24,000 nt of DNA from NCBI GenBank assembly GCA_019115125.1, contig DXEG01000060.1, positions 23,725 to 47,724 on the forward strand. Reading direction: 5' to 3'. This DNA is from Candidatus Blautia faecipullorum (lineage in GTDB: Bacteria > Bacillota > Clostridia > Lachnospirales > Lachnospiraceae). A program made the translations under genes and the position numbers. Positions 7,901-21,602 of this stretch are shown here, one piece after another. Within the stretch, counting starts at the first letter, position 1, and each line of letters starts with the position of its first letter. The notes beneath the pieces were generated by a model. The model saw only the letters and a program-made list of their open reading frames with translations. It did not search any database and had not been told where the DNA came from.

Positions 7901-8084
7901 GTTCTGTATCCAGCGCCTGACTGGCCCAGAATGCCGCCTTGAATGCCTCGTTTCCGATCCAGCCAGTTCCAAGGATCAGAACATTGCTCTGCTTCTTGTT
8001 TCCTCTGATTTCTGCATATTCGCAGATTGGTTTTTCATATAGAAGATCATAAATCCGCAGTCGGTATTCGCCTATTTTTGCCAT
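4947..8084 (-). CDS. giant multidomain protein (1045 aa): NAD(P)-type Rossmann head, EHxRW (RyR-like) module, CARF-like domain, PD-(D/E)xK (Card1/Can2, DUF1887-like) nuclease
   Basis: GGGAGAAGGA lies 5 nt before ATG 8084. GxGxxG is present at residues 39-44 (VLILGTGWIGNEA). EHRRW is at 7116..7130, followed by RGF...LHMCLCDCG. Residues ~512-665 resemble the Card1 CARF layout (VITLSDG...; DIIINCVPNRGYDAALAIG; NFSLAEYIQLMGG, cf. Card1 LSLKEYLDAHG). The C-terminus has GLIFELIVYY (E892), NEIDIIA (D968) and MVSCKTS (S981-x-K983), a restriction-endonuclease-fold pattern with Ser in place of the usual Glu. Confidence 0.9.
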   Translation of the reverse strand: MAKIGEYRLRIYDLLYEKPICEYAEIRGNKKQSNVLILGTGWIGNEAFKAAFWASQALDTELSITVASQNAAAYKEQVLSTKAGACMPALKLYAEQKHYANLRFVDIDVEKGMDSAGLAPLDFAANRYNYIIISLGDAEHNWLAASELITQISGAQAESAGQRHRILVNVFNELSDSISTDEQEMLIEAGRDNGIEVHFFGNESVTGTELDRIARNINFSYSMKYDQRINKKDADDQFEASRVAEFVESPKDYEIGDISIAANFIGANYAADSSFASAVHIPVKLAMCKNVDIKKAPVDTLKEAIRKKNKLYWSLVALEHRRWNAYTVTRGFRAPTPKEEETLLYQNGNTHQDKQRLLHMCLCDCGTKASLANDFDHQYDLWIRKKCPANDPSELDRASLRAHQLTKKLSSQVDIEAVLHLVVGNSPEYSNLRRAISKLANDDDNSLVLYQKSLDAAREYALSISSEEADHIEEVNKILSPIKTRNARMDFFSLDEQLVEMLPFALWYGKKYGTVITLSDGMTTSTYDVIIPTLFCAQNAVFIGKAVNSRKYQNAIAIYFESRGNNTVPEFITLSSMDVESIFACLEEQLIKYGHHDIIINCVPNRGYDAALAIGRLMEKYTGNINAVQYLQNKGIVSFSADKNVGVGLDNKNFSLAEYIQLMGGRIANEYAGLYDSSEYESIMALFKKYCEPTHLKGANGKASGSFNTWAAVTKFFSQAAKDMNYGDGIKQDLEGDELHYTGSFSETIFRNSMIGNVLEQLQTYHIIRDYEKNIAGPIVTVDFEYVNPEIGSLLQQFEMGQITETDQYKSLKFIPMNGGLKVSSRLVQQAPIVSSEETEVHRKVKLAFLQDLLQRRYIENLQFNTEDDTVTFAFSDAATMRLMKTQGLIFELIVYYLMRESGKYDDVETGVKIAWDAEDTPQEQKLIEMLDRKGPSCFGYSEYVKARGEVIKQAIIGEGESVKNEIDIIALSGMNATMVSCKTSDNDNMQWVYEIRAVSDHFQSKGVLAVSSDYRNKGRAAFVERANQMNVTIWGTETLWNSNI

Positions 8085-9695: not shown

Positions 9696-11231
9696 TTACG
9701 CCGTTTTCTCGGATTTGTTGTAGTTTTCCACATCCTTTACCATACTTCCCATCCCTGCTTCTGCAAGGTTAATGAACGAAAGTACACGGTCGCTCCAGCC
9801 TGCAATGAGGTTAAAGCGTGCGCCGCAGAACTGCTGTGTACCATAGCCCTGAAGATCTACACCATGCACCCAGAAGTCTTTGTTGTACTTGCTGCGGTAT
9901 TTGTTCGCAAGCCCCTGTATGGTGGTTTCAAGACCACAGTTGCACTCGTTATCCGAGAAATAGATAACTCGGTCGAACGGCTTAAAGCGTTTGCCCTTAT
10001 CGACCTCCAATGCATATTCCATCGGAAGTGAAAGGTCTGTGCCACCGCCTGCAAATGAGTTCTGTAATGCAATTTCAAGAACAGAATCATACTTGCCATA
10101 GTTTGCGATACGATATCCTCTCTCTTCACTGTTTTTATACACATCCTCCGGGAATTGCATTCCGCGCCGTCTGTAGTATTCACGATAGAGAGTCTTCGAT
10201 GCTTCAAAGTAGCATACCGTTGCATCTTCGCAAAGCTTGTTTGTCATCGCCCCGAGTAAAGAAGCGATATCAGAGCAGCGGATATCGCTCTTTGCAGAAA
10301 TCCGACAGCTCATTGAACCGGATACATCAATGGCGATAAGTGTTCTGCCCTTGATTTTCTCCATATTATCAACCGAAGCCGTAACTGCGCTCTCGAGAGC
10401 ACGGTGAATCTCATCAGTCATGAGTCCTTCCTTCTCAAGCATGCGATAAGCGCTGAAGAAACGGAACGGAAGCTGCTTCGACTTCTTCACCTGAACCGAA
10501 TCAGAAAGTACCGCAAGCACCGGAGTGATATCCGCACCGGACATAATAATGTTGCGAAGGTTACGAAGCAATGCCATGTAGCCAACTTTGCCGGATGCAA
10601 TAAGCTCATCCCAGACTTCCCTTGTATTGCCACGAGAGGAAAGTTCCGTTTCCCAGGTGTACGGAGTCTCAAGGGTATCGTTTAAGATCTTCCCAAAGAG
10701 TTCCTCAATCTCTTTGGACTTCGGATTCGGATGTGTAATGCGGAGAATATCACGGAACTTCACATCTTTGCAGCCGCCATTGTATTTTGCAATCTGGTAC
10801 TCATCGAAGTTCTGGATCACCTCAGCCATCCCACGCTTTAATGCGTTCGGAAACGGCTTGCCATACATGGTCTTGTAGCAGGCCATGATTTCTGTAACAT
10901 CATCCGGACGTTTGACCACACTACAAATGGTCTGGCGGGTAAATGCAGATGCCTCGCGGGCGATCGCAGCGGTAAGCACATGGCTTACAGAACGCATGTT
11001 GAAAACCTCACGAGCAAAGCAGGCAAGGTTGCTAACAAACTCCGGGTGCTTCTTGCAGAGTTCTGTTGCAAGCTGGACGATTTCGTTATCCGTGGATCCA
11101 TAGTATTTTTCCTCGCTAAACATGGTGGTCACTACTGCTGTCATAAGTTGTTCCTTATTGCTCATTCGGTATGCTGCATGACCGGAACGGTTTTCGGTTT
11201 TGATTGTGTTGGTTGTGTTGAACTTAGCCAT
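9696..11231 (-). CDS. rsr: Ro60-related protein Rsr (TROVE domain + C-terminal vWA domain)
   Basis: 511 aa with GGAGGTG 6 nt before the ATG. The N-terminal and central TROVE-like sequence (NRSGHAAYRM...EKYYG...; GYMALLRNLRNI; KQLPFRFFSAY) is followed by a vWA MIDAS motif (LIAIDVSGSMS). Two Y-RNA-like genes lie immediately upstream, which is the classic rsr context. Confidence 0.9.
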   Translation of the reverse strand: MAKFNTTNTIKTENRSGHAAYRMSNKEQLMTAVVTTMFSEEKYYGSTDNEIVQLATELCKKHPEFVSNLACFAREVFNMRSVSHVLTAAIAREASAFTRQTICSVVKRPDDVTEIMACYKTMYGKPFPNALKRGMAEVIQNFDEYQIAKYNGGCKDVKFRDILRITHPNPKSKEIEELFGKILNDTLETPYTWETELSSRGNTREVWDELIASGKVGYMALLRNLRNIIMSGADITPVLAVLSDSVQVKKSKQLPFRFFSAYRMLEKEGLMTDEIHRALESAVTASVDNMEKIKGRTLIAIDVSGSMSCRISAKSDIRCSDIASLLGAMTNKLCEDATVCYFEASKTLYREYYRRRGMQFPEDVYKNSEERGYRIANYGKYDSVLEIALQNSFAGGGTDLSLPMEYALEVDKGKRFKPFDRVIYFSDNECNCGLETTIQGLANKYRSKYNKDFWVHGVDLQGYGTQQFCGARFNLIAGWSDRVLSFINLAEAGMGSMVKDVENYNKSEKTA

Positions 11232-11914: not shown

Positions 11915-13291
11915 TCAGGCCCCGGCAGGAAGAGCTGTTTCCTCCTCTGGTACGATTGTTATGACAATATTTTCGATATCACCTGACAGTAAAACCTTGT
12001 GGCCTTTGTATCGACCAATATTGCGATCATACACAGTTGCTGCTGTGATTGCCTCTCTCACAGCGTCCCTGACGCCCCTGGCGCCATAGTTGCTGTGCTG
12101 TTCCTTCAGCTGCACCATTAGTTCCTCGTCCATATGCTCAAGTTCCATCTCGTAATTCTGCAGCTCTTCCACTACAAATTTGCTGACGATGTCTGTAAGC
12201 GCATCTGCGGGAAGTTCACGGAAAGCCAGACAGTTCGTAATCTTGCCGGCGATTTCCGGATGACCGCAGGCCTTAGCGAGAGTGTTTCTACAAATCTCCT
12301 TCTTTCGGAATGCTGACGCCTCTTCATAAACCTTCATATCTACCGGAATGTTGCTGGTAATGACAAAAATCACATGGCTCAGATCAATATCCGGTGAATT
12401 GTCCGCAAGGTGAACCACACCGCTGGAAAAGCATTCCATAAGCCCGGTATAGATACGATCCGTTGCCTTCTCAATCTCGTCCAGCAGGAAAACCTGGTAT
12501 GGATTGGATCGGACAGGCTCAAACACTGTAGGATCCTTATAGCCTATATAGGAAGGCGGAGATCCGAAGAATCTGTTGACCGAATGCTCACCAATGAACT
12601 CGTTGAGGGCAATCTGATGAAACCCATAAGCCTGTCCGGTCAGCTTCTCCAGTGCTCCCGGAAGAGCTTTTCCAACCTCTGTTTTGCCAACACCGGTCGG
12701 GCCAAAGAGAACAATAACCTCAACTTCTGGCTTTTTTCTGCGGAGATTTGCTGAAATCAGTTCACTGATCTTTTTGATAGCTTCGTCCTGTCCGTAAATA
12801 CCACGCTTCAGTTCCGCCGCCAGTTCATCCGGCCAGACCGTTTTTGTCTGCTTCTTCTGTTCAAGTTCACGGACTTTATCCTTATCCACAATGTATTTTG
12901 AGCTGCCTGCAGCTGTCTCGTTCTCACTTGTCTGCGACAAAGTTACTGCAGATTTCATCGGATTTTTCTCAGCTTCCTGCGATTTTTCCAGCACTGTATA
13001 ACTCCACACCTGATCGGTATTGCAGATTGTTACAGTTCCACCATCCTCCTCTGGCTTGAATTCGATGACCATATCCACAGCCGGAATGTCCTGCGGCAGG
13101 CTCACACGTCCCGCCTCCATACAGGTTTTATCAGCAAAGTTAACGTGGTAAATCTCCATCTCTTTTTTCCCGCTGATTCCCTGAAGCATTTTCCTCAGAC
13201 CACTTTTACCACTCATCAAAATGACAGATGTCAAATGACCACGGTCTTCATCGAAACCAATTACGATACAGTCTTTATCTGAATATCTCAT
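11915..13291 (-). CDS. Clp/Hsp100-type AAA+ ATPase (single ClpB/ClpA D2-like module) with a novel ~180-aa N-terminal domain
   Basis: IYGQDEAIKKI..., Walker A (LFGPTGVGKTEVGKAL), FFGSPPSYIGYKD, Walker B (FLLDEIEKA) and sensor (VITSNIP) follow the AAA_2 (ClpB D2) pattern. Start set at ATG 13291 (GGAAAGGGGGA 7 nt upstream) rather than ATG 13333, which has no SD. Confidence 0.85.
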   Translation of the reverse strand: MRYSDKDCIVIGFDEDRGHLTSVILMSGKSGLRKMLQGISGKKEMEIYHVNFADKTCMEAGRVSLPQDIPAVDMVIEFKPEEDGGTVTICNTDQVWSYTVLEKSQEAEKNPMKSAVTLSQTSENETAAGSSKYIVDKDKVRELEQKKQTKTVWPDELAAELKRGIYGQDEAIKKISELISANLRRKKPEVEVIVLFGPTGVGKTEVGKALPGALEKLTGQAYGFHQIALNEFIGEHSVNRFFGSPPSYIGYKDPTVFEPVRSNPYQVFLLDEIEKATDRIYTGLMECFSSGVVHLADNSPDIDLSHVIFVITSNIPVDMKVYEEASAFRKKEICRNTLAKACGHPEIAGKITNCLAFRELPADALTDIVSKFVVEELQNYEMELEHMDEELMVQLKEQHSNYGARGVRDAVREAITAATVYDRNIGRYKGHKVLLSGDIENIVITIVPEEETALPAGA

Positions 13292-13333
13292 GTGAGATTC
13301 CCCCTTTCCTTTTGATAAGTCCATTTCCTGCAT

Positions 13334-14050
13334 CTATCGATATTTGCATAACAGGTTAACGTTTACCTTCTCATATGCATTGAATTCATTAGCGATTTCT
13401 TCATCGGACTTACCGGCTACCGGCTCATACCAGTCCTGTGCACTGAAATAGTCAATATTCTCCTGTATTTTGAACTCTCTCCCATGGCGTGCATACATCT
13501 CATTGATGATCATTTGAATCTCATCGCTGCTATAACCTTCAATATCTGATACCTCCAGGTATCGATCCGCACTATCCGGCATCAGATAGGCTGGCATTGC
13601 TGCATTCTCTTCAGATGTTGCTTCATTATCAGAATCAATGTCCTGAACCTCCTCCGCTGTGAAGGTGTCATCTTCCATCGTATCGGACAGAACCTGCTCA
13701 TTCATGTAGTTGGTGATGGCCTGCTCTTCCGAAGATACATGAGAACGGTTATAGAAAAACGCTCCAATAAACAAGGAAATTACAGCACAGACAATAACTG
13801 ACTTCCACGGAATTCCTGTATGGACAGTTGTTCCAGCCGTGCCAATGGTATGAATCATATTGCCTGCATTACCTGTTGTCCTGTCGTTTCCGGCTGCTGT
13901 CTGCGGACGATATGTCCTGGTTGTTCTTACAATTCTCTGATTCCTCTGGGCCCTGTGATCAGCTTCCGCCTGAGACACATTATCCAATGTGGTTCTTCCG
14001 GTTCTGTCATCTTTATAGTATCGTTTTCCATTGATCAGTACATAACTCAT
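13334..14050 (-). CDS. single-pass membrane protein with C-terminal YARHG domain
   Basis: Start set at ATG 14050 (GTAAGGAGG 8 nt upstream, MSYVLINGKRYY...). One TM helix (WKSVIVCAVISLFIGAFFY), an acidic linker, then the literal YARHG motif (INEMYARHGREFKIQENIDYFSAQDWY). Confidence 0.8.
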   Translation of the reverse strand: MSYVLINGKRYYKDDRTGRTTLDNVSQAEADHRAQRNQRIVRTTRTYRPQTAAGNDRTTGNAGNMIHTIGTAGTTVHTGIPWKSVIVCAVISLFIGAFFYNRSHVSSEEQAITNYMNEQVLSDTMEDDTFTAEEVQDIDSDNEATSEENAAMPAYLMPDSADRYLEVSDIEGYSSDEIQMIINEMYARHGREFKIQENIDYFSAQDWYEPVAGKSDEEIANEFNAYEKVNVNLLCKYR

Positions 14051-14079
14051 TAGAAACGCCTCCTTACAAAACCGTCCGT

Positions 14080-14466
14080 TCACTTACTGGACTCATAATG
14101 CATCCTGATACGAGCAAATACATCTTCAGCAGTAAGATGCCCCAGTACAGTATCATGAACTCTGTCCATCTCTTCCCGTGTCATCAGTCCGCTGATTTCA
14201 AGAAGTCCCTCAGAAGATCCGTGCCCGTTTGCAATAACACTGCATACAGCGCCTTTGCCCGGTCCCTGCCAGACATTACTGTTACTGTCTTTCGGCTTCG
14301 GACGCCCTTCCGATCCGTAGTAGCAAATCTGCATTCCAAAGTTTTCAAATGGAATACCTGCTTCTGTCAGCAAATCATCCAGTTTCTCCAATTCATCGGA
14401 AGCATTGCCTTCAGCAAAGCCACCGGAAAGTGCCATCATCAGTTTAAGTAAATCCATTGTGCTCAT
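14080..14466 (-). CDS. hypothetical protein (128 aa)
   Basis: ORF-track frame with CAGGAGGAATACAAA before ATG 14466. First gene after the 97-nt spacer that follows E1. No motif recognised. Confidence 0.7.
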   Translation of the reverse strand: MSTMDLLKLMMALSGGFAEGNASDELEKLDDLLTEAGIPFENFGMQICYYGSEGRPKPKDSNSNVWQGPGKGAVCSVIANGHGSSEGLLEISGLMTREEMDRVHDTVLGHLTAEDVFARIRMHYESSK

Positions 14467-14555: not shown

Positions 14556-14564
14556 TTTGAAACT
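14556..14564 (-). promoter_or_regulatory. TTTGAAACT motif abutting the E1 stop codon, with a second GTTTCAG half-site and GTTTC/GAAAC inverted repeat next to it
   Basis: TTTGAAACT at 14556-14564 and CTGAAACT at 14545-14552. On the minus strand these are AGTTTCA repeats 11 nt apart (start to start). GTTTC-tgct-GAAAC lies at 14538-14551. About 90 nt upstream of ATG 14466. Confidence 0.35.
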
Positions 14565-15916
14565 TATGCTACAATATTACATCCAATATCTGAAGATGAT
14601 TTCTCTGCTCCGCAATAGGAGCAGGAATCATTTTTCTGCGCCGGTCCGGACTTCCAGGTAAACGGCCTGCGTTCATCCTCTGTACCAAACAGATGCATGT
14701 ACGGATTAACATCCTGATCTATCGGATAATTTAGCAGCACCGTACACTGATTGATGTATGGAAGCAGTTTTGCCTCATAGCCTTCCTCATGCTCCATCAA
14801 AATGTCGATAGCCAGCTTTGTTTCAAAGATCGCTGTAAGCTGGATATCCAGATACATCCCCGGCTGGAAATGAAGCTTCTCAAGCTCTGTCTCCGTTGCA
14901 TAGAAACGCCTGCGCACCGCCTGATTGCTGTAATCGACACCCTTATCTTCGCCATAAGCACAGGTGTAGCATGCCATGCCGGAATTCGGTTTATACCAGA
15001 ACACCTCTCCTGTGGAGCCTCTTGGGCCACAGCCTGCATCAATCATCGGAATGTTGTATTTATCTGCCAGCTCGTTACAAACATAGCCGCAATGACGATT
15101 ATCCGCACAGCAAAGGATAATGGAATCCTTCCAGATAATCTTCTCAAGTTCAGCAGGATCCACATGCTGGATCAGATCTCTGAAGGTATAAATCTTGCAG
15201 TTCGGATTGATGTCAGCAGCTCTTTCCTTGAAACAGTCAACTTTATAGCGACCTACATCATGGATACCACATTCGTGACGGCAAACATTGTGATAAGCAA
15301 GGATGTCATTGTCAGCCACGATCAGGGAACCGATTCCCGCTCTTACCAGTTCCAGACCGACCTTAAAACCGCCGGATCCGATACCGGAAATAATAGCCTG
15401 CTTTGCTGCCATTCTATCCTGCTCTACGATTCCTTGATTTCTGGAAAATACATCCTGGCGTGTGGAGTAATAATCAATATTGATCTCTGATCCGGAATTA
15501 TCTCTGACAAAGATTTCTGCCTGCTCTTCATTCCAGACAATGGAAAGACCAAACTGACCGAAAATGTCACCGTCTTCTCTCCCTGTGTGCTCTTTTCTGA
15601 CCGCCATACCCAAGACCTTCGCATCTGTTCTTGCATCGTATAGCGCCTCCTGTACGATGTTATAGGTTTTAGTCTCTGGGTGGTAATAGCCCCAAAGTTC
15701 ACCCTCATAACGCTGCTTCCGGTATTCTTCCGGAATCAGAACCGTGTATGGTCTGAGCGCCTCCTGAATCTTTTCAAAGTCCATGAAGTCTTCCTCAGAT
15801 GTTCCTTTCTCTGCCGTATTGTCCATGAAAGTAACTTCTGCAGTTTCTGTCTTAACCGGTTCTGTTTCGGCCGATACCGCTGCCTTCTGCAATGCATTTG
15901 CTGTTCTGTTATCCAT
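14564..15916 (-). CDS. ThiF/MoeB-family E1-like activating enzyme (Bil D-like position)
   Basis: Rossmann ATP site (IISGIGSGGFKVGLELVRAGIG), IVADNDILAYHNVCRH (cf. vD.D.v..sNLnRQ), LCCADN, and CxxC pairs (MACYTCAY; CSYCG). Start set at ATG 15916 (GGAGGAGG 8 nt upstream). Alternative starts are 15958, 15826 and 15781. Confidence 0.85.
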   Translation of the reverse strand: MDNRTANALQKAAVSAETEPVKTETAEVTFMDNTAEKGTSEEDFMDFEKIQEALRPYTVLIPEEYRKQRYEGELWGYYHPETKTYNIVQEALYDARTDAKVLGMAVRKEHTGREDGDIFGQFGLSIVWNEEQAEIFVRDNSGSEINIDYYSTRQDVFSRNQGIVEQDRMAAKQAIISGIGSGGFKVGLELVRAGIGSLIVADNDILAYHNVCRHECGIHDVGRYKVDCFKERAADINPNCKIYTFRDLIQHVDPAELEKIIWKDSIILCCADNRHCGYVCNELADKYNIPMIDAGCGPRGSTGEVFWYKPNSGMACYTCAYGEDKGVDYSNQAVRRRFYATETELEKLHFQPGMYLDIQLTAIFETKLAIDILMEHEEGYEAKLLPYINQCTVLLNYPIDQDVNPYMHLFGTEDERRPFTWKSGPAQKNDSCSYCGAEKSSSDIGCNIVA

Positions 15917-16569
15917 ATATTTTTCCTCCTCCGGGTGTCCCCTGAACAAATCGGACAATCTTGTGCGGATTGATCCTTTATCTTCGGCTGCTGCAAGCGT
16001 TCCACGCTCTGCTTTTTGGCCGCCTTTCTTGCGGCTTCATTACGTTCTACAGTTTCTTTGAGTCTTCGCAGGGCAATACGGGGCATAGCCGCTCTGACTG
16101 CCTTATCGTTGATCTCATACTCTACTTCCGTCTCGTCGCCATTCTCATCAATATACCAGAACTTAATCCGGAATTCAGGGTCAATGAAGATGAGTCCGTT
16201 TACAACGCCGCCAAACTGCTGCGCAAGCTTGATATTTGCCGGATGATCACCATGGCTGAAATGCAGGTACCCGTCCGGATGTCTGTGAACCTGAGAGACT
16301 GTCAGCTTACCGTTTGAGAAATCATAATATTCGCTGAGTCGTGTCGATAAGTGGTCTGCATAAACATGATCCTTCTCACACATAGTTGGCGTATAGGTGG
16401 CATTGATGCCGCTATCCGATACCATGTCAAAAAAGAAGTCATTTCCGATGCGGATGCCCGGCATCTGGATAATGCTTTCGTTTCCGGGATGCCGCCCCAC
16501 CTCGAGCAGCATCCCTCTGTAGGTATTGTGGGTAATATAAACATGATACTTATCTTTTCGCTGAAACAT
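15736..16569 (-). CDS. JAB/JAMM (MPN+) metallopeptidase (Bil C-like position)
   Basis: Complete JAMM signature: upstream Glu (MLLEVGR) and HRHPDGYLHFSHGD (HxH-x7-S-xx-D). ATG 16569 has GGAGG 5 nt upstream (the track's 16575 start is GTG). The last ~60 codons are extremely Arg/Lys-rich and overlap the E1 gene by 181 nt. Confidence 0.8.
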   Translation of the reverse strand: MFQRKDKYHVYITHNTYRGMLLEVGRHPGNESIIQMPGIRIGNDFFFDMVSDSGINATYTPTMCEKDHVYADHLSTRLSEYYDFSNGKLTVSQVHRHPDGYLHFSHGDHPANIKLAQQFGGVVNGLIFIDPEFRIKFWYIDENGDETEVEYEINDKAVRAAMPRIALRRLKETVERNEAARKAAKKQSVERLQQPKIKDQSAQDCPICSGDTRRRKNIWITEQQMHCRRQRYRPKQNRLRQKLQKLLSWTIRQRKEHLRKTSWTLKRFRRRSDHTRF

Positions 16570-16580
16570 AGACACCTCCG

Positions 16581-17033
16581 TTATCTATCGCGATCCACAC
16601 CTGTCTTCTCCCATACACAATAGACGTCGATCCACCTTAGAACCCTAGTCATGGCAGTGTAGCCATTCACGGACGCAGGATCCGTAGATTTTACCTGACA
16701 GATATAGGGAAGTCCCATCGTGGAATCAGAAATCAGGTGATGGAAGCCCGGCTTCAATTTTGTCATAGGATACACTTTGATTGAGCCGCCAAAGAGGCCA
16801 TCGGCATCTCTGCCCGGGTGATCATGCTCGTATACCACATGGAATACAAAGGTTCGCCAACGCTGATCCGGTGCCGGCTTAACCGGCAGGGTCACATCCA
16901 CACAGAATCTATGCTTGTTGTCATAACAAAACATCATTTTCATATTCGGATGGTTATACTCACGCATAAACCTCAGGAAAGCATCCTTTTCAAACTGCAG
17001 TAAAGCTCCGTTCTCTTTTTCATACCAATACAT
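16581..17033 (-). CDS. UBC-fold E2-like conjugating enzyme (Bil B-like position)
   Basis: IKVYPMTKLKPGFHHLISDSTMGLPYICQV...YTAMTRVLRWI follows the E2 core pattern (yP..pP...HPN...G.iCl...W). C in YICQ is the candidate catalytic Cys. ATG 17033 has GGAGGG 6 nt upstream (the track's 17039 start is TTG). Confidence 0.7.
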   Translation of the reverse strand: MYWYEKENGALLQFEKDAFLRFMREYNHPNMKMMFCYDNKHRFCVDVTLPVKPAPDQRWRTFVFHVVYEHDHPGRDADGLFGGSIKVYPMTKLKPGFHHLISDSTMGLPYICQVKSTDPASVNGYTAMTRVLRWIDVYCVWEKTGVDRDR

Positions 17034-17045
17034 ATGCAACCCTCC

Positions 17046-17426
17046 TTATCGTGCATAGTTCTTCTCTGGTGCCGTATTGATTACAGGGGTGCTGGAATTC
17101 TGCGCCTGACTTGCAGGCACCACCTCTCCGTTGCGGAATACAAACGCCTCAACGTCTGCAGTTCCATTTGCCTGATCTTCGAGCTGGCCATAATTAGGCT
17201 CATGAGCTGTCCTAATAACAGGAGTCGTAGAGTTCTCTGCCTGATTGGCTGGTACTATTCTTCCTTTGTCGTATACGAATGCCTCTACATCTGCAGATCT
17301 ATTTGCCTGATCCTCAAGCTGGCCATAATTCTTATATCTTCCGGTTCTGATCATATCCATATGCTTTTCCTCCTTGTCAAAATCCGCATATTCCTTAAAG
17401 TTACCATTTATTACAGATGCATTCAT
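17046..17426 (-). CDS. 126-aa tandem-repeat protein occupying the Ubl/modifier slot of the E2-JAB-E1 operon
   Basis: ATG 17426 has GAAAGGAGG 9 nt upstream (MNASVINGNFKEY...). It contains two 45-aa repeats, NYGQLEDQAN(R/G)(S/T)ADVEAFV(Y/F)..G..VPA.QA.NS.TPVI.TA.E, and begins a third (NYAR-stop). The stop is 12 nt from the E2 start. Confidence 0.7.
   Translation of the reverse strand: MNASVINGNFKEYADFDKEEKHMDMIRTGRYKNYGQLEDQANRSADVEAFVYDKGRIVPANQAENSTTPVIRTAHEPNYGQLEDQANGTADVEAFVFRNGEVVPASQAQNSSTPVINTAPEKNYAR
17049..17330 (-). repeat. 2 x 135-nt in-frame tandem repeat plus a 12-nt partial third unit
   Basis: AATTATGGC (N-Y-G) occurs at 17330-17322 and 17195-17187. AAC-TAT-GCA-CGA (N-Y-A-R) lies at 17060-17049. 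Confidence 0.9.
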
Positions 17427-17442: not shown

Positions 17443-17661
17443 CTATCTAAACAAAGATCTGATGATATAACCGATGACAAATACCATGATCACAATCGGC
17501 ATGACTGCATTGATCCATGCCCAGGTGTTATTGGCAAATGCCGTAACGATAAACTCCTTATATTTGATACAGCTGACCACCACCAGCATTGTTCCTGCTA
17601 TTGTCCAGCCGATCAGGAACCGTTTGATCACGGTCCACACTGTAACTACCCGATAATCCAT
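17443..17661 (-). CDS. small membrane protein (72 aa, 2 predicted TM helices)
   Basis: ATG 17661 (MDYRVVTVWTVIK...) has GGGGGTGGTG 6 nt upstream. The track's 17700 start is GTG inside the previous gene. Hydrophobic stretches: FLIGWTIAGTMLVVVSCI and WAWINAVMPIVIMVFVIGYII. Confidence 0.65.
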   Translation of the reverse strand: MDYRVVTVWTVIKRFLIGWTIAGTMLVVVSCIKYKEFIVTAFANNTWAWINAVMPIVIMVFVIGYIIRSLFR

Positions 17662-17666
17662 GTCTG

Positions 17667-17945
17667 TCACCACCCCCGATAGCTTCTGCGCAACTTCCAC
17701 TTCAGCCGCACGGTAAAATAAACAACAGTTGCTATCACAATCAGGATTGGAAATCCGGAGGACAACAGATTTGCCATGAAAATGGCAATCCGCGCTGTCA
17801 CCGCCCCAAAATTGGCAATGATGCTAAAAGCTGCCAATCCTGAAAGCACAGAACAGATAATTAGCGCGAGTGTTACGCCCGACACGATCCTAACTCCGGT
17901 TCCTCTGTAGCTTTCCTGTTTAAAGATACTCCCTGCACGTCTCAT
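17667..17945 (-). CDS. small membrane protein (92 aa, 2-3 predicted TM helices)
   Basis: ORF-track frame with hydrophobic stretches VSGVTLALIICSVLSGLAAFSIIANFGAV and GFPILIVIATVVYFTV. Its ATG overlaps the stop of a 15-codon uORF (ACATGAGA). Confidence 0.65.
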   Translation of the reverse strand: MRRAGSIFKQESYRGTGVRIVSGVTLALIICSVLSGLAAFSIIANFGAVTARIAIFMANLLSSGFPILIVIATVVYFTVRLKWKLRRSYRGW

Positions 17946-18137: not shown

Positions 18138-19388
18138 TCACACCACAACCGGAACCCCTGCCGCAGCAGGCAGGAAGTCCGATGTACGAATCAGATAGAC
18201 GTTTGCATTCGCTGTGGTTTTAACAGCCAGATAATCCGATGTTCCGCCGAAAAATCCCGGCTTTACATACATATCCTGACTCCGGACACGAAGACGCTCT
18301 TCGCTCTGACTCTGCCAGTGTACTGCTCGTTTGAACGACACGAGGATGTGCGGCGTATTTCCAGCCACCGGTACCGGATAATGATACTGATAAGAGCCGA
18401 ACAAATCTCGGGACAGATCATCCGTTGCAGCCGATGTACCATGATGGAAAAGTACCACATTCGGAAAATCCAGCTCTGCATTACCGTGCATGGCTTCTCT
18501 GACATTCTGCGAAACCATCATCAGTTCAATCTTCCCCTGGCGTCTGGTCTGCATGAGGTACTTCATTAATTCATCATTTTCATTCACAAACTGCATTTCA
18601 TCGAGGATGATACGGATTCGCGGCACTCGTTTCAGGGTATGGAATATTTCCTCCTTCAGATAGGAGTTGAAAATACTCTGATTACAAGAGCATGTGTACA
18701 TGGCCATCCCAGCCAGGTTCCCCTTCGCTCCGCTCTGAAAGTTGTATTTCGTATCGCTGCCAGGAGCATAGATATCTTCAAATATCTCTTCCAAGCGTTC
18801 AAAGAGCCTGCGAAGCACAATGCCTGCTTCATGATTAGCGCGAATATTATCGGCAATCACATTGGAGAGACCTGACTGCAGAGCAAATTCGGAGATAAAA
18901 TCATCATCCTCATTCAGGAGCTTTACGATGGCTGGCAGGGATACCGGATACTTTGCGGAAACGACATTCAGAACAGCGGCAGCATAGATCATGACCTGGT
19001 CGGTCAGAATGCCATAGCCCATCTCTTCCGCTGTCATACGGACAAAGCGAAGAATCTGCTGTGCAGACATTCCATAAAATGGATGATAGTTCTTATCCGC
19101 AGGACATGATGTCATAACGCAATCAATCTCATGTGCACTTACTTTCTGCTGTATAGCCGTCATCAGCTCCGGATGACTGGTGAGCAGGATTGTGGGCATA
19201 TCATTTTTCTCAATACCACTACAGAACAGATCCAGCACCATTGCATGATTTCCGGCCTCAACTCCGCTGATCAGAAGATCGCCGTGAATATTGCGGAAAA
19301 AGGATGCACTGTCAACACGCCCCTCGAACACACGTCTTGCTGCATTCATACGCTCACATTCATTGATAACCATTCTTTTATTACCCAT
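18138..19388 (-). CDS. Walker-A-degenerate paralogue of the TraG/VirD4-type ATPase (416 aa)
   Basis: ATG 19388 has GGAAGGAG 7 nt upstream. It aligns by eye with the 20196..21602 protein: IRIILDEMQF vs KYFLLDEMLL; RRQGKIELMMVSQN vs GRSLGVRMMCGLQN; NVVLFHHGTSAATDDLSRDLFG vs NIVAFRSNDYDTRQFVINRLG. The P-loop position reads GVEAGNHAMV instead of GAPGTGKTNF. Confidence 0.75.
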   Translation of the reverse strand: MGNKRMVINECERMNAARRVFEGRVDSASFFRNIHGDLLISGVEAGNHAMVLDLFCSGIEKNDMPTILLTSHPELMTAIQQKVSAHEIDCVMTSCPADKNYHPFYGMSAQQILRFVRMTAEEMGYGILTDQVMIYAAAVLNVVSAKYPVSLPAIVKLLNEDDDFISEFALQSGLSNVIADNIRANHEAGIVLRRLFERLEEIFEDIYAPGSDTKYNFQSGAKGNLAGMAMYTCSCNQSIFNSYLKEEIFHTLKRVPRIRIILDEMQFVNENDELMKYLMQTRRQGKIELMMVSQNVREAMHGNAELDFPNVVLFHHGTSAATDDLSRDLFGSYQYHYPVPVAGNTPHILVSFKRAVHWQSQSEERLRVRSQDMYVKPGFFGGTSDYLAVKTTANANVYLIRTSDFLPAAAGVPVVV

Positions 19389-19461
19389 AGTTTCACTCCT
19401 TCCTGCCGAATTCATATATGAATCCGGCCTTCTGATTCTCTAATGCTTATCGCCTGCACTC

Positions 19462-20103
19462 CTACGGAAGTATCTGCATCAGTTTCATTGCTGAACGAAA
19501 CCGGATATTTTTCAGACAATCCTCGCCAAACTGCTGACCGGTATAATTGTTCTGAAACGAAACATCGCAGAAGCCCAGAATTCGCTGCCATATACTCTGG
19601 TGAATCCTCGCCTTGGTAGTTATCGTCGGAATTGTACTGTAGGTTCTTCGGATAATACCTTTTCTAATATTGATTCCACCATCCGGTGAATAAGAATAAC
19701 TTTCAAAAGGATTTAAAAAATTCCGGCTCCTCCAGTTCAGAGAATCATAACCGGTCGTTCCACAATCAAAAGCTCTTGTCCTTCTCCATTGAATCGTCTG
19801 GATATCCTCCGGCATTGTTTTCAGCAAAACTCCACCAAGAATGGAAATTCCTATTAGCAGAAGTATTTCAAGACCAATTGGAAGGGTCAGCACGGTTACA
19901 ACGACAGTCATAACCGCAGCCAACAAAGCAATGTACTTTCCTGTTTTATAATTGCCAACCAAAATGACAGCAATGATAATATCCAGGATAATCTTAAATC
20001 CATTAACACCGGCTTCCCCGCTACGTGTATTAAAAAGAAGCAACAGGAGCCAAATGCCAAAACCTTTACAAAAATTGATCAGGCTGCTCTTTACAGACTC
20101 CAT
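19462..20103 (-). CDS. polytopic membrane protein with C-terminal bacterial PH-like (bPH/YdbT-like) domain
   Basis: ATG 20103 has GAGGGGGTG 6 nt upstream. There are 3-4 TM stretches (GFGIWLLLLLF; IILDIIIAVILVG; YIALLAAVMTVVVTVLTLPIGLEILLLIGISILGGVLL). The soluble tail ends ...TITTKARIHQSIWQRILGFCDVSF, which resembles the bPH_2 C-terminal strand pattern. Confidence 0.65.
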   Translation of the reverse strand: MESVKSSLINFCKGFGIWLLLLLFNTRSGEAGVNGFKIILDIIIAVILVGNYKTGKYIALLAAVMTVVVTVLTLPIGLEILLLIGISILGGVLLKTMPEDIQTIQWRRTRAFDCGTTGYDSLNWRSRNFLNPFESYSYSPDGGINIRKGIIRRTYSTIPTITTKARIHQSIWQRILGFCDVSFQNNYTGQQFGEDCLKNIRFRSAMKLMQILP

Positions 20104-20195
20104 GAACGCACCCCCTCGCATAAAGAAAATAAAATAAATCTGAAGTTTCAGAGCTATTCCTGCATCCGAATAGCTGCAGGAACCAGCCCTTCTTT

Positions 20196-21602
20196 TTAAC
20201 CGTACAACGGCATTGTAAACAGAAACGGATCTTCACACGCAAGTGAAACCACTGCTTCACCGTTCTTCAGTTTCAACAGATTCCAGTCTTCCACCGTGTG
20301 ACCGGCCCGCTGGATATTGAGATTTGCCTGCTGTACGGAAAGACTGAAGTTCTGGTAGTTCTCACCCAGGCGATTGATAACAAACTGTCTGGTATCGTAA
20401 TCGTTCGATCTGAACGCCACAATGTTCTGGAAAGACGACAGGATGTTCCTTGCGCCGGCCACCCCATATTGCTCTTCAAGTCCGCATGTATTCTGAAGTC
20501 CGCACATCATTCTGACTCCCAGAGAACGCCCGAAATTTAAACTGTCTGATAAATGCTCAAGCCTCGGAAGAAGGAGCATTTCGTCTAACAGAAAGTACTT
20601 ATTGGTTTTCATCTGTTGTCTTCCACCCAGTGCGTTAGCAAGAGCTCTGTCGATGAGAATGCCATACATAGGGGCTAGCAGTCTGCCTTTACGAAGGTCA
20701 TACTCAATAAAGACAACTTTCTTATTTCCACTGCATATGATATCTCGCATAGAGAACTCTCTTGCCGGATCAGCCTGTGCAAACGGACCGACGAACATCT
20801 TCTTCAACATGGAACTGACATAAGAGTTCACTCCCTGCGTCTGGTTTCCCTTGCCTGAGATATAGTCAATGCAGCTGCGTTGATCAGACATATAATCCAG
20901 ACTGAGAATCTTCTTAAGATCCTCATTGGTACTGTGAGTAAAGAAATTGATAAATTCTTTGTTATTCAGCTTCGACTGATCAAAACGCCAGTAAGTCTTC
21001 ATGAAATAAATCATGACAGCTGCAACAACCTGCTCTGCCATTGCCGGAAAAACAGGCTGTGTTTCACTTCGCATGGACTGAAACAGCTGCTCACAAAGTT
21101 CCAGTGCATCTTCGTTGGATTCCGGCGTATAGACCAGTTTCCCATCATTTCCCCGTGGCATTACTTCTGCAAAAATATTATGATAGGAGGTAACCCTGCG
21201 ATATGCATCGCCATTGCCGATGATAACCTTCATGCTGTCCGGAATTCTGCTTCCGAAAGTCTCCAGATAATCACCCTTCGTATCGAAGATGATAATCACA
21301 TCTGTCGGCTGCATGGTGGCAAGCATGCGATCCAGTGTCATATTAAAAAAATTGGTCTTACCAGTGCCAGGCGCCCCAAGAGCCAATAAGCCATAGGCAA
21401 GTATATCTCTGCTCAAACCGAACAATCTCTTAGTCTTCGGATCCTGAAATGCAACAAACGGACTTCGTGATTTATCCGCTGTCCATACAGGAACCGGAAT
21501 GTCTCCGATGCTCTGTCCTAAGATGGTCTTGGTGTACATACCACTGTTTCTTTCCTGATTGCTGCCTGTCCCGATTCGTTTATGTCCAAAATCATATGCC
21601 AT
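20196..21602 (-). CDS. TraG/TraD/VirD4-type (FtsK-HerA superfamily) P-loop ATPase, soluble (468 aa, no TM segment)
   Basis: AAGGAGGG lies 7 nt before the ATG. Walker A (LGAPGTGKTNFF), Walker B (YFLLDEMLLLP) and GVRMMCGLQNTCGLEEQYG (cf. the coupling-protein motif Qs..QL...YG). Confidence 0.8.
   Translation of the reverse strand: MAYDFGHKRIGTGSNQERNSGMYTKTILGQSIGDIPVPVWTADKSRSPFVAFQDPKTKRLFGLSRDILAYGLLALGAPGTGKTNFFNMTLDRMLATMQPTDVIIIFDTKGDYLETFGSRIPDSMKVIIGNGDAYRRVTSYHNIFAEVMPRGNDGKLVYTPESNEDALELCEQLFQSMRSETQPVFPAMAEQVVAAVMIYFMKTYWRFDQSKLNNKEFINFFTHSTNEDLKKILSLDYMSDQRSCIDYISGKGNQTQGVNSYVSSMLKKMFVGPFAQADPAREFSMRDIICSGNKKVVFIEYDLRKGRLLAPMYGILIDRALANALGGRQQMKTNKYFLLDEMLLLPRLEHLSDSLNFGRSLGVRMMCGLQNTCGLEEQYGVAGARNILSSFQNIVAFRSNDYDTRQFVINRLGENYQNFSLSVQQANLNIQRAGHTVEDWNLLKLKNGEAVVSLACEDPFLFTMPLYG

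Follow-up and report, generated by a model that had tools for sequence, protein, structure and literature searches.

The window, a stretch of 24,000 nucleotides of Candidatus Blautia faecipullorum, carries on its minus strand a gene for a small repeat peptide, followed by genes for an E2-like protein and for a JAB peptidase joined to an E1-type adenylation domain (JAB-E1). The order peptide, E2-like protein, JAB-E1 is kept in about 70 loci of Lachnospiraceae, with a VirD4-like coupling protein alongside. We annotated the following features, listed in the direction of transcription.

18138..21602, minus strand: conserved upstream genes (a 425-aa protein, a bPH-domain protein and a VirD4/TraG-type coupling protein), a conjugative-element context
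17443..17945, minus strand: two small membrane proteins of 85 and 92 aa, always directly upstream of the peptide gene (synteny)
17046..17426, minus strand: repeat-peptide ORF, 126 aa, with AGGAGG 8 nt upstream and with homologues; the conserved product probably starts at M23 or M25
16581..17039, minus strand: E2-like (UBC-fold) protein, 152 aa, as predicted with AlphaFold2 and Foldseek; homologues start at the ATG at 17033 (MYWYEKE)
16737-16739 and 16698-16700, minus strand: His101 and Cys114 of the E2-like protein, both invariant in 29 sequences
15736..16575, minus strand: JAB/JAMM peptidase ORF, 279 aa, with HxHx7SxxD at 16246-16287 (motif; tblastn)
16012..16030, minus strand: frame change, a 1-nt deletion in an A-run, which splits the JAB-E1 gene in its variable linker (tblastn, relatives)
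14564..16030, minus strand: E1 part, a conserved domain of about 100 aa and then a ThiF-type adenylation domain (Pfam ThiF 1.7e-24; PADLOC CBASS E1-E2 2e-22; PDB profile)
13334..14083, minus strand: YARHG-domain membrane protein, a conserved downstream partner (Pfam 1.4e-15; synteny)
11915..13333, minus strand: ClpA/ClpB-like ATPase with a single AAA_2 domain and about 170 aa of unique N-terminal sequence, a conserved downstream partner (domain scans, synteny)

An earlier note on this DNA had placed the peptide in the Ubl position of an E1/E2/JAB cassette, and the domain matches, the E2 fold and the conserved gene order all agree with that placement. Among the conserved neighbours, none apart from the peptide combines a conserved small C-terminal residue with a variable tail. 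The AAA+ ATPase or another neighbour was also considered as a CBASS-style E1 substrate and rejected, none of them having a conserved small C-terminal residue. ClpP is found nearby in some elements.

The repeat peptide gene

Both 45-aa repeats of the ORF open with NYGQLEDQAN, and its tail reads NYAR followed by the stop codon. The two repeats are identical at 32 of 45 amino acids and 96 of 135 nucleotides, and the self-alignment score of the peptide reaches 166, against 23.4 +/- 4.3 in 500 shuffles (z = 32.9), which bears out the repeat structure as it had first been described. When the identities are split by codon position 1, 2 and 3, they amount to 38, 37 and 21 of 45, indicating purifying selection on this frame. 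TRF reported no tandem repeat in the DNA of the gene because the copies are too diverged, and a scan for promoters and terminators at the locus showed no difference from shuffled sequence.

The leader is shorter than the 32 aa first assigned to it. In-frame stops occur upstream of M-I-x-T in five lineages (L011, L012, L013, L014 and L016), and an AGGAGG is conserved 6-10 nt ahead of the M-I-x-T ATG, even where the upstream frame is closed. Thus the conserved start is M23 (17358-17360) or M25; the seemingly conserved KEEK of the leader is the Shine-Dalgarno sequence, so that a real leader of about 10-13 aa is what stands of the original description. Its final 10 residues, IRTGRYKNYG, resemble the unit ends VIRTAHEPNYG and VINTAPEKNYA, and the motif I-x-T-x4-N-[YF]-[GA] is therefore present n+1 times for n units. 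The peptide gene can be divided as follows.

17367..17375, minus strand: internal Shine-Dalgarno AAGGAGGAA, which reads as K18-E19-E20, 6 nt before the ATG at 17358-17360
17322..17360, minus strand: conserved short leader MDMIRTGRYKNYG, ending in I-x-T-x4-N-Y-G, from alignments; it co-varies with the unit-end motif
17187..17321, minus strand: unit 1, Q36-G80, QLEDQ...HEPNYG (repeat alignment; AlphaFold2)
17052..17186, minus strand: unit 2, Q81-A125, QLEDQ...PEKNYA, ending at the conserved terminal N-Y-A (repeat alignment)
17046..17051, minus strand: disposable tail, Arg126 and the stop codon; the tail is variable in homologues

Homologues and junctions

Homology searches with the repeat peptide returned 98 homologues at E<=0.01. 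Pfam, PADLOC and NCBIfam hold no family for it, a PDB sequence search with the unit profile gave nothing meaningful, and neither the PLSDB plasmids nor the IMG/VR viral contigs contained a match. A profile search of 1.84 billion representatives yielded only 38 proteins, the large ones being unrelated Ig or cadherin repeat proteins, while a homology search with the fused protein P0144 returned the query itself as its sole match. We found no published description of the peptide family in the literature.

The homologues contain 1 to 3 units per peptide, so that repeat number does vary, and the junction x-[YF]-[G/A/S] is conserved by residue class, with an aromatic in 34/34 and a small residue in 33/33 non-redundant units. 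Both points support the interpretation in the earlier note. Gly is typical of the internal junctions (62 of 65), whereas the terminal junction mostly carries Ala or Ser (78 of 88). Conservation of the peptide halts exactly at N-[YF]-[A/G/S], and the sequences beyond are unrelated, the tail after the last junction being 0, 1, 2 ... 21 or about 125 aa long, or consisting of the E2 itself. Three members have natural stops right at the motif (NYA-stop in L033, NFA-stop in L060 and TLA-stop in L076), two end at ...NY-stop (L055 and P0091), and in clade L068-70 the residue following the aromatic is S, L, T, Y or A. Some variants are without the terminal N-Y-A, L015 ending in VIHTPKWCV, and the second unit of L010 is degenerate. 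In-frame fusions of modifier and E2 have arisen repeatedly (L014, P0144, P0150, L068-70, L072-75/78); in the window, as in most close relatives, the two genes stand apart.

Across six clades, the motif at the leader end and that at the unit end co-vary, with a mean BLOSUM62 score of 17.1 within clades and -0.4 between them, and none of 265 derangements reached the observed sum. This is the pattern expected of two sites for one enzyme, and it suggests that leader end and unit end may both be such sites. Orthologous repeats are 0.79-0.88 identical, as against 0.72 for paralogous repeats within a protein; thus the repeats do not evolve in concert, and each repeat position keeps its own signature. 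In subfamily A (43 proteins), the internal junction has diverged, EPNFG vs EKNYA. Polyubiquitin consists of near-identical units kept alike by concerted evolution, and the polyubiquitin-like logic once proposed for this peptide does not hold on that count.

Fold of the 45-aa unit

The AlphaFold2 model of the peptide is of low confidence (mean pLDDT 57.7, pTM 0.44). For each unit it predicts a short helix, a beta-hairpin and a short strand at pLDDT 60-76 (in unit 1, helix 36-43 and strands 49-53, 56-59 and 70-72). The units had been seen as largely disordered, which is only partly right in view of the secondary structure predicted in each. Foldseek found nothing significant for this low-confidence model, its best match being ThiS at E 2.9. 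The noise-level matches include several beta-grasp proteins, which we regard as a lead only. Pfam gave only sub-threshold matches of the peptide family to SAMP2 (0.0026) and ThiS-like (0.015), and when the unit profile was compared by hhalign with reference sequences of E. coli ThiS and H. volcanii SAMP2, the hairpin alone could be aligned, with probabilities of 0.6% and 12.6%, respectively. Since these probabilities are weak, the idea that the unit is a truncated beta-grasp is not established. No beta-grasp was detectable in the peptide with AlphaFold2 and Foldseek, and Pfam scans of the conserved neighbours found neither a beta-grasp nor a Ubl domain, in line with the lack of a beta-grasp gene initially reported for the operon. 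A beta-grasp may be hidden in the domain of about 100 aa that precedes the E1, in the N-terminal domain of the AAA+ ATPase or in the 425-aa protein.

The E2-like and JAB-E1 proteins

The E2-like protein has no Pfam, PADLOC or NCBIfam match, and PDB sequence searches with the single sequence and with a profile gave nothing meaningful. Its AlphaFold2 model (pLDDT 85.6, pTM 0.82) has the topology alpha, four beta strands, then alpha, and the top 50 Foldseek matches are almost all E2 enzymes, at E-values of just 0.06-0.4, the best being CBASS CdnG-E2 8yjy_B (E 0.059, prob 0.96, TM 0.48). Cys114 lies within ...G.P[YF][IVL]C[QT]..., with the His of FHHL before it, and is also conserved in distant clades. 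Going by the predicted model, with its UBC fold and a Cys downstream of an HPN-like His, this 152-aa neighbour is a member of the UBC/E2 superfamily.

The JAMM motif HRHPDGYLHFSHGD occupies residues 97-110 of the JAB ORF, and its E, HxH, S and D are invariant in the alignment of the fusion proteins, as are the adenylation residues. Judged by these motif residues, the 279-aa ORF is a JAMM/JAB protein with the putative zinc site E ... HxHx7Sx2D. Pfam Prok-JAB is matched by distant relatives; the JAB protein of the window itself has no Pfam, PADLOC or NCBIfam match, and its PDB sequence search gave nothing meaningful. According to tblastn, real homology ends near 16012 and the remainder of the ORF is out of frame. 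A single-frame JAB-E1 ORF of 603-668 aa is found in about 38 related loci, and the frame change in the linker recurs in L009, L023 and L016/L037/L038. The copy in the window may be impaired because of its frameshift.

The E1 part has a single ThiF domain and two CxxC zinc motifs, and is separated from the JAB by a linker of about 80 aa and the conserved domain of about 100 aa. Its crossover loop, placed by the CxxC motif and the next helix rather than by superposition, lacks Cys and shows an invariant Tyr in every clade. In PDB profile searches the E1 matched PaaA (1.3e-9), MccB (2.4e-7) and BubCD (1.3e-6), while in PADLOC it scored best against the CBASS E1-E2 models.

A candidate modifier precursor

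On balance we favour, with moderate confidence, the reading that the repeat-peptide ORF encodes the precursor of a conjugatable modifier, the equivalent of a Ubl, in a Bub-type-I/Cap2-like E1-E2-JAB cassette of a Lachnospiraceae conjugative element. In all likelihood the peptide is a tag not described before, lacking a full ubiquitin fold, which the enzymes of the cassette would trim and attach to proteins. Behind this reading stand observations on the order of the genes, the identity of their domains, the motif statistics, the fusions and the natural ends of the peptide. The low-confidence AlphaFold2 model of the peptide and its lack of a significant fold match count against it, as do the variants without a terminal N-Y-A and the frameshift in the JAB-E1 gene of the window.

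The product would consist of a short leader and one to three 45-aa mini-domains (helix, beta-hairpin, strand), each flanked on both sides by I-x-T-x4-N-[YF]-[G/A/S]. The JAB domain of JAB-E1 would cut at this motif, at minimum at its last copy, and shed what follows, a single Arg here and elsewhere up to about 125 aa or a fused E2. The NYAR tail had been taken for an uncleaved remnant; instead, the bond between NYA and R is the best-supported candidate processing site. The new C-terminus, in which the aromatic is most likely followed by Ala or Gly, would be adenylated by the ThiF-type E1, and the activated peptide would be handed to Cys114 of the E2, possibly via the invariant crossover-loop Tyr as in BubCD, before the modifier is finally joined to a target amine. 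One candidate for reading the tag is the ClpB-like AAA+ ATPase, which is conserved along with the cassette. The scissile bond may instead follow the aromatic residue, as the ...NY ends of L055 and P0091 and the variable residue in L068-70 would allow, although we know of no E1 that accepts a C-terminus ending in an aromatic. We infer all the chemical steps, and likewise which bond is cut, which proteins are targeted and what the system does biologically, which could be defence or conflict, or control of the transfer machinery.

A more elaborate proposal, which we hold to be unlikely as a whole, is a tagging system resembling the ubiquitin-proteasome pathway but built on a peptide in place of a beta-grasp: that JAB cuts at every motif of a polyprotein would release 45-aa tags, that the Cys-less, Tyr-dependent E1 and the Cys-dependent E2 would attach them and that the ClpB-like ATPase would read them, in an element-borne system acting on proteins of the host, the recipient or rival elements. 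The tags of such a system may be what remains of the alpha1-beta3-beta4-beta5 portion of a ThiS/SAMP-type fold.

Alternative explanations

Nested within the modifier reading is the question of whether the peptide is a precursor of several modifiers, with the JAB cutting at the leader, internal and terminal motifs and each separate 45-aa tag, ending in ...N[YF]G or ...NYA, being activated and conjugated individually. The leader and internal junctions agree on either side of the putative cut, that is, the motif and the G before QLEDQ, and even in clades with a single unit the leader motif and the unit end co-vary, suggesting that the N-terminal site is used. Moreover, unit number ranges from 1 to 3, and in P0005/L007, P0014, P0141 and L030 the last good site is of the internal type (NYG before QLEE) and is followed by a long degenerate tail. 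However, Gly prevails at internal junctions and Ala/Ser at terminal ones, the internal junction has diverged in the 43 proteins of subfamily A, the repeats show none of the concerted evolution of polyubiquitin, and the 1-3-domain Ubls of Bub and Bil are used whole (PMC11601603). We therefore regard multiple cutting as tentative and somewhat doubtful.

Alternatively, the unit could be no modifier but an accessory N-terminal domain of the E2, split off and duplicated, with a part in E1 docking, target recruitment or pseudo-substrate autoinhibition, the true E1 substrate being another protein, as the CD-NTase is in CBASS. Indeed, in more distant clades the unit simply forms the N-terminal part of the E2 polypeptide, its cleavage from the E2 is putative, and a beta-grasp is undetectable with AlphaFold2 and Foldseek. 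We nevertheless find this improbable, since many lineages encode the peptide separately, with a fixed end, variable tails and three natural stops at the motif, since it leaves copy-number variation and the leader-to-end co-variation unexplained, since no nearby alternative protein has a conserved activatable C-terminus and since such fusions are, by the BubAB precedent, precursors. Improbable, too, is a RiPP-like pathway, in which the JAB would excise cores from a leader-bearing multi-core precursor and the E1-like enzyme, in the manner of MccB and PaaA, would activate their C-termini for cyclisation, head-to-tail ligation or nucleotide attachment, giving a free and perhaps exported peptide. 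A leader and repeated cores with identical flanking motifs do resemble multi-core RiPP precursors, such as those of the cyanobactins. The E1 is as near to PaaA and MccB as to BubCD, lacks a catalytic Cys and is preceded by a conserved domain of about 100 aa, in front of the adenylation domain, where MccB and PaaA have their peptide-binding domains; in addition, the two small membrane proteins are always adjacent. Yet strictly conserved together with the peptide is a UBC-fold E2, whose Cys and His are invariant and which has fused to the peptide repeatedly, and we know of no RiPP pathway that uses an E2; domain scans of the cassette found no transporter, YcaO or other RiPP enzyme, and the co-conserved AAA+ ATPase suits tag reading better than peptide export. 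Finally, the missing database family (Pfam, PADLOC, NCBIfam) would also fit a spurious ORF or a meaningless low-complexity repeat, an explanation whose chance we put at practically nil, as it is already refuted by purifying selection on the frame, by at least 98 homologues with conserved synteny and by the strength of the repeat (z = 32.9).

To our knowledge, all characterised protein modifiers that depend on E1 and E2 are beta-grasp proteins, except for the CD-NTase tail of CBASS, and here the modifier slot of a Bub-like cassette is filled by a dedicated gene of 45-aa modules. If the favoured reading is true, E1-E2-JAB machinery can work with a minimal peptide tag, Bub chemistry (the E1 Tyr) and canonical chemistry (the E2 Cys) would be combined in a natural hybrid, and ubiquitin-like tagging would be tied to conjugative elements of Lachnospiraceae that are abundant in the human gut (Blautia, Frisingicoccus, Fusicatenibacter, Mediterraneibacter). 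A genetically encoded, enzymatically conjugated tag of 45 aa could serve as a tool.

Comparison with known systems

With Pup, the peptide shares its small size and the lack of a ubiquitin fold, and by analogy the AAA+ unfoldase could read the tag as Mpa reads Pup. There is however no sequence similarity, and the unit ends in N-Y-A where Pup ends in GGQ/GGE. Pup involves no E1, E2 or JAB: PafA ligates it via a side-chain carboxylate, and Dop processes it. Scans of the neighbours against Pfam, NCBIfam and PADLOC found no Pup-ligase family (PafA/Dop), and the unit comes out as partly structured in the prediction, so that the Pup-like disordered tag of the earlier note is not upheld. In MccB (microcin C7) and PaaA (pantocin A), as proposed here, a ThiF-type adenylation domain works at the C-terminal end of a short peptide of ribosomal origin, and the sequence scores are comparable, but their pathways have neither E2 nor JAB and their precursors are unrepeated and 7-30 aa long. 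Like polyubiquitin, the peptide has head-to-tail units in variable number, an extra C-terminal residue and a metalloprotease or DUB that could process it; it differs in having a leader and no beta-grasp, with units that are about 70% identical and non-concerted and with internal junctions unlike the terminal one.

In type II CBASS, the disordered tail of E. cloacae CdnD (...GRFA) is adenylated by the E1 Cap2 and cut by the JAB enzyme Cap3 (10.1101/2022.03.31.486616). Here too a flexible tail that is not a beta-grasp would be activated, ...NYA/...NFA compared with ...GRFA, with a JAB peptidase as partner; the E1 scores best against CBASS models, and the best Foldseek match of the E2 is a CBASS protein. 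In contrast to Cap2, an E2-E1 fusion with a catalytic Cys in both domains, the E2 is separate, a JAB instead of an E2 is fused to an E1 without catalytic Cys, and the putative substrate is a dedicated small repeat peptide rather than an enzyme, the CD-NTase. Neither the window nor the related loci contain a CD-NTase or CBASS effector. From Bil (BilABCD) the system differs in its single ThiF domain and in having no Cys domain and no beta-grasp.

Type I Bub (6E.1) comprises BubAB, a Ubl-E2 fusion that the JAB domain of BubCD cleaves after a conserved Gly, BubCD, a JAB-E1 fusion, and BubE (PMC11601596); the type 6e operon was described by Iyer, Burroughs and Aravind in 2006 (PMC1779556). The present modules are of 45 aa, whereas those of Bub are beta-grasp domains of 70-75 aa, and mostly end in Ala after an aromatic rather than in Gly. 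The E2 has the canonical Cys/His and not the Ser of Bub, which uses oxyester chemistry, and no neighbour scanned against Pfam matched DUF6527/BubE. Further differences are the linker and extra domain between JAB and E1, an E1 whose sequence stands no nearer to BubCD than to ThiF or PaaA, and the YARHG and AAA+ partners within a conjugative element. Nonetheless, the two systems are alike in the gene order modifier, E2, JAB-E1, in a JAB at the N-terminus of a homodimer-type E1, in a crossover loop without Cys and with an invariant Tyr, and in a (here putative) modifier of 1-3 tandem modules. Fusion to the E2, the arrangement of BubAB, is seen in several lineages but not in the window or most close relatives. 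In not evolving in concert, the repeats resemble the 1-3-domain Ubls of Bub and Bil, which are used whole, more than they resemble polyubiquitin.

The repeat peptide and its reading frame

The repeat peptide consists of a leader, two 45-aa units that both open with NYGQLEDQAN, and a truncated NYAR end. This description, made in the earlier note, was borne out by translation and by self-alignment, which scored 166 against 23.4 ± 4.3 for shuffles (z = 32.9). The two repeats share 32 of 45 residues and 96 of 135 nucleotides, and TRF detected no tandem repeat at the DNA level in the gene. Identities at codon positions 1, 2 and 3 numbered 38, 37 and 21 of 45, indicating that both copies are old and have been kept by selection on this reading frame.

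Features of the peptide gene and its neighbours
17046..17426, minus strand: repeat-peptide ORF, 126 aa (MNASVINGNFKEYADFDKEEKHMDMIRTGRYK, two 45-aa repeats, NYAR-stop)
17367-17375, minus strand: internal Shine-Dalgarno AGGAGG, codons K18-E19-E20; ATG 17358-17360 next
17352-17360, minus strand: internal start M23/M25, inside the annotated peptide ORF
Downstream of the peptide: E2-like protein, 152 aa, UBC-type predicted fold
About 16012-16030, minus strand: frame split of JAB-E1, a 1-nt deletion in an A-run within a poorly conserved linker

The annotated ORF includes the 32-aa leader, of which residues 1-22 lack conservation; the conserved start is M23/M25, and the conserved product begins MDMIRTGRYKNYG. 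Among the related loci (L-numbers), five lineages (L011, L012, L013, L014 and L016) have in-frame stop codons ahead of M-I-x-T, yet all retain AGGAGG 6-10 nt in front of the ATG. Since AGGAGG is kept where the upstream frame is closed, KEEK in the leader is, judging from these sequences, a ribosome-binding site whose conservation is one of appearance only, and gene callers thus over-extend the gene in most database entries. A longer form may also be made in the window, where a good Shine-Dalgarno sequence precedes ATG 17426 too.

After the short leader the units take the form n x QLEDQA..DVEAFVFRNGEVVPA.QA.NS.TPVI.TA.E.N[YF][GA]. The leader's final ten residues (IRTGRYKNYG) resemble the unit ends VIRTAHEPNYG and VINTAPEKNYA, and a peptide of n units carries the motif I-x-T-x4-N-[YF]-[GA] n+1 times.

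A narrow family with natural ends

A homology search with the peptide returned 98 proteins and an exhaustive profile search with the family only 38 cluster representatives, so the family is narrow; we found no publication on it in the literature searched. Repeat number, which the earlier note had proposed to compare among homologues, does vary: database proteins carry one unit in 31 cases, two in 65 and three in 1, and metagenome loci one in 17, two in 19 and three in 2. Single-unit genes adjoin intact E2 and JAB-E1 genes in L009, L013, L016, L017, L028 and L037-L046.

Conservation ends at N-[YF]-[A/G/S]. Beyond this terminal junction lie R, C, Q, L, Y, I, K, GK or nothing, in subfamily B 15-21 unrelated residues, and in the homologues P0005 (L007 8001-8609), P0014, P0141 and L030 a tail of 25-125 residues of degenerate repeats after the last NYG; VVLFD[SN]N.E.DE is conserved at the end of these tails, some of which hold a Cys-rich stretch (CIQRFQEDCRNC). 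A stop codon directly follows the junction Ala in L033, L060 and L076, and L055 (5950-5976) and protein P0091 end in ...EKNY at a real stop, with no small residue. A decayed copy occurs in L004/L005 (8001-8512), where a single-unit peptide precedes an E2 cut to 81 aa, with no E1; DEAD/ResIII helicase genes replace the rest and a NADAR-DarT1-type gene lies upstream.

Junctions and their co-variation

In 34 non-redundant units the junction residue classes were an aromatic in 34/34 and a small residue in 33/33; the NYG junction, proposed earlier as the possible most conserved feature, matches the hairpin Gly and the helix Ala without exceeding them. Inside and end junctions differ consistently in composition, as in subfamily A (internal EPNFG vs terminal EKNYA).

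Table. Junction composition by position
Leader: x[YF]G; Gly in about 92/95
Internal: N[FY]G; Gly in 62/65
Terminal: NYA 67, NYS 6, NFA 5, NYG 2

Evolution of the repeats is not concerted: identity between proteins was 0.79 for R1-R1 and 0.88 for R2-R2, compared with 0.72 for R1-R2 within a protein. Across clades, however, changes at the leader end are matched at the unit end. With 10-mer windows picked by eye and anchored on the junction, the mean BLOSUM62 score was 17.1 within clades vs -0.4 ± 8.0 between, and 0 of 265 derangements of six clade representatives reached the observed sum. The simplest reading of this co-variation is that one factor recognises both places.

Table. Leader end and unit end in six clade representatives
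L074: EIVGGNIFA; ELKGDNDFA
L073: KIKNGNVFA; EIKEGNKFA
L075: ISGTFA; PKGTFA
L072: IIAPPGRLS; IIVPEGKLA
L069: LPRQPLF; MPKKPVY
Window: IRTGRYKNYG; INTAPEKNYA

In L068-70 the residue following the junction aromatic is not small; together with the ...EKNY ends of L055 and P0091, this makes any exact placing of the scissile bond tentative, and the mature end may be the aromatic residue itself.

The E2, JAB and E1 neighbours and the fusions

Structures were predicted for the peptide and the E2. The 152-aa E2-like protein had no family match in Pfam, PADLOC, NCBIfam or PDB sequence searches, but its model (pLDDT 85.6, pTM 0.82) shows a helix, a four-stranded meander and a helix, and its 50 best PDB matches in Foldseek were E2 enzymes nearly throughout, led by CBASS CdnG-E2 (8yjy_B) and followed by UbcH5 and Ubc13, at weak E of 0.06-0.4 and TM of about 0.45. 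His101 and Cys114 are invariant in the alignment (FHHL...G.PYIC). An exact JAMM motif (HRHPDGYLHFSHGD) is present in the next ORF, which is followed by a ThiF-type E1 (Pfam ThiF 1.7e-24), matched best in PADLOC by CBASS E1-E2 models (about 2e-22) and in PDB profiles by ThiF (6e-11), PaaA (1e-9), MoeB, MccB (2e-7), UBA5, BubCD (1.3e-6) and Cap2 (2e-5). Its crossover loop, bounded by the first CxxC and by the FQPG...DI helix, has no Cys and an invariant Tyr in every clade.

In related loci JAB and E1 form one protein of 603-668 aa, in a single frame in about 38 loci; the window's own gene is frameshifted. Since linker frame changes recur (L009, L023, L016/L037/L038) and distant relatives have separate JAB and E1 genes, the split may be tolerated; the frame change could also be slippage-prone sequence or an assembly error.

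The most telling family evidence comes from several lineages in which the peptide runs in frame into the E2 as a fusion. In L014 (...EPVYA-S-YWYEKE) the tail, stop codon, Shine-Dalgarno and Met are cleanly deleted; proteins P0150 (...RNYA-SG-YWYERD) and P0144 (three units, then ...DPNFA-YPWYKD) are similarly joined. L068-70 have 2-3 units of ~50 aa (ELDRLS.EATKVTDYVVVNGQLVPK...IDMPKKPVY) ahead of the E2, with ...KPVY immediately before YWYD in L068, and L072-75 and L078 one unit-like region closing [FL]A before the E2's xWYE. A JAB gene follows the fused E2 in all of L068-70, L072-75 and L078, and a ThiF E1 gene follows that in the loci checked (L069, L074, L075). Among distant relatives, L073 (363-1716) and L075 (5785-7013) have a tandem pair of E2-like paralogues, of which one bears the N-terminal unit and the other does not; a 1233-aa triple-AAA ATPase lies upstream in L075, and L074 has a relaxase. 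In L059 (738-1919) the E2 frame runs on into JAB; the resulting 393-aa ORF, from a contig of low coverage, reflects either a fusion of E2 with JAB(-E1) or an error in sequencing.

Fold of the unit

The AlphaFold2 peptide run (47 sequences) gave a mean pLDDT of 57.7 and pTM of 0.44. The first 27 residues are disordered. In each unit, which the earlier note had pictured as largely disordered apart from a short segment, a helix (QLEDQA), a hairpin (DVEAFVF-RNG-EVVPA) and a short strand (PVI) are predicted. Forty-five residues are too few for a complete beta-grasp, as that note had also held. Foldseek with the peptide model gave nothing significant (best ThiS 1zud_2, E 2.9; several Ubls at noise level). 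Pfam SAMP2 matched 4 of 36 members below threshold (best 0.0026), covering helix and hairpin colinearly, and a ThiS-like match of 0.015 was obtained for the L069 fusion. When the unit profile was compared by hhalign with SAMP2 and ThiS sequences, only FVFRNGEVVPASQ aligned, to VLVDGRPVPEDQ (SAMP2, 12.6%) and INQQIVPREQW (ThiS, 0.6%). The unit could be what is left of the alpha1-beta3-beta4-beta5-tail portion of a beta-grasp of ThiS/MoaD type, a lead and not a result; a beta-grasp may also lie hidden in the pre-E1 domain, the AAA+ N-domain or the 425-aa protein of the cassette.

A probable modifier precursor

Taken as a whole, the sequence evidence makes it probable that the peptide is a modifier precursor. 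Beyond what is directly observed (domain identities, gene order, motif statistics, fusions, natural ends and selection), JAB would cut the peptide at the motif, at minimum at its last copy; the E1 would adenylate the newly exposed C-terminus; transfer, perhaps via the loop Tyr, would pass it to E2 Cys114 and then to a target amine; and the AAA+ ATPase, or the YARHG and membrane proteins, would function downstream. Whether the leader and internal junctions are also cut, freeing Gly-terminated peptides from a poly-modifier as the earlier note proposed, is more doubtful, although a fair minority chance can be given to it: the leader end co-varies with the unit end, and variants exist with an internal-type NYG|QLEE junction as the last site, but Gly inside vs Ala at the end, position-specific repeats and the precedent of Bub and Bil, whose Ubls of 1-3 domains function as whole proteins (PMC11601603), speak against it.

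That the peptide is instead an accessory domain of the E2 and no modifier seems unlikely given its free tails, natural stops and copy-number variation. RiPP-like maturation by an E1 of MccB/PaaA type is likewise unlikely, as the E2 is strictly co-conserved.

The cassette and known systems

In the conserved gene order a VirD4-like coupling protein is followed by a 425-aa unknown, two small membrane proteins, the peptide, the E2, JAB-E1, a YARHG membrane protein and a ClpB-like AAA_2 ATPase; ClpP and another coupling protein are added in one lineage, and in L001 ClpP lies three genes beyond the ATPase. The cassette is hosted by Lachnospiraceae and related bacteria (Blautia caecimuris, Frisingicoccus caecimuris DSM 28559, Candidatus Mediterraneibacter, Fusicatenibacter, Eubacterium MAGs), and PLSDB and IMG/VR gave no match.

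Neighbouring genes in the window
4947-8084, minus strand: 1045-aa protein, C-terminal ~100 aa matching Card1-like/CARF-PDDEXK nucleases (Pfam 2.8e-5, PADLOC 2e-10), large N-terminal part without match; kept beside the cassette in L013 and L007
8918-9478, minus strand: conserved 186-aa protein
9696-11231, minus strand: TROVE/Ro60-like protein with vWA domain (Pfam 1.4e-34); this and the 186-aa gene recur downstream of the cassette in L007, L010, L013 and L015-L017
11915-13333, minus strand: AAA_2 ATPase, single-ring, ClpA/ClpB-D2-like, with a unique ~170-aa N-terminal region; matches PADLOC models DolB and PDC-M37B (about 1e-21); no ClpA-type IGL/IGF loop, judged by eye
14080-14466, minus strand: 128-aa ORF between E1 and YARHG gene, only in the window and L010, no family match

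The cassette may serve as cargo for defence, comparable to the Card1/CARF-nuclease and Ro60-vWA genes beside it, or may belong to the transfer machinery.

Iyer, Burroughs and Aravind described an operon type, 6e, that encodes a protein of 1-3 beta-grasp repeats of ~70-75 aa; an E2/RWD-like domain is either joined to this protein or encoded by a gene lying between that of the protein and a fused JAB-E1 (PMC1779556). This type is now named Type I Bub: BubAB joins Ubl and E2 and is cleaved by the BubCD JAB domain directly behind the conserved Gly, the crossover loop of BubCD lacks Cys but has an essential Tyr, BubB has Ser in place of Cys, and BubE is a DUF6527 serine protease (PMC11601596). Our cassette resembles it in gene order, JAB-E1 fusion, Cys-less Tyr loop, 1-3 modules and recurrent modifier-E2 fusion. 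However, its module is 45 aa without a beta-grasp, its E2 nucleophile is Cys, BubE is absent, and it has an extra pre-E1 domain and other partner genes; we therefore rejected its membership of Bub as defined. The parallel with Type II CBASS is chemical: Cap2 adenylates the disordered E. cloacae CdnD tail ending ...GRFA and the JAB enzyme Cap3 cuts there (10.1101/2022.03.31.486616), so that an aromatic-Ala end on a flexible tail is a proven substrate type for this enzyme class.
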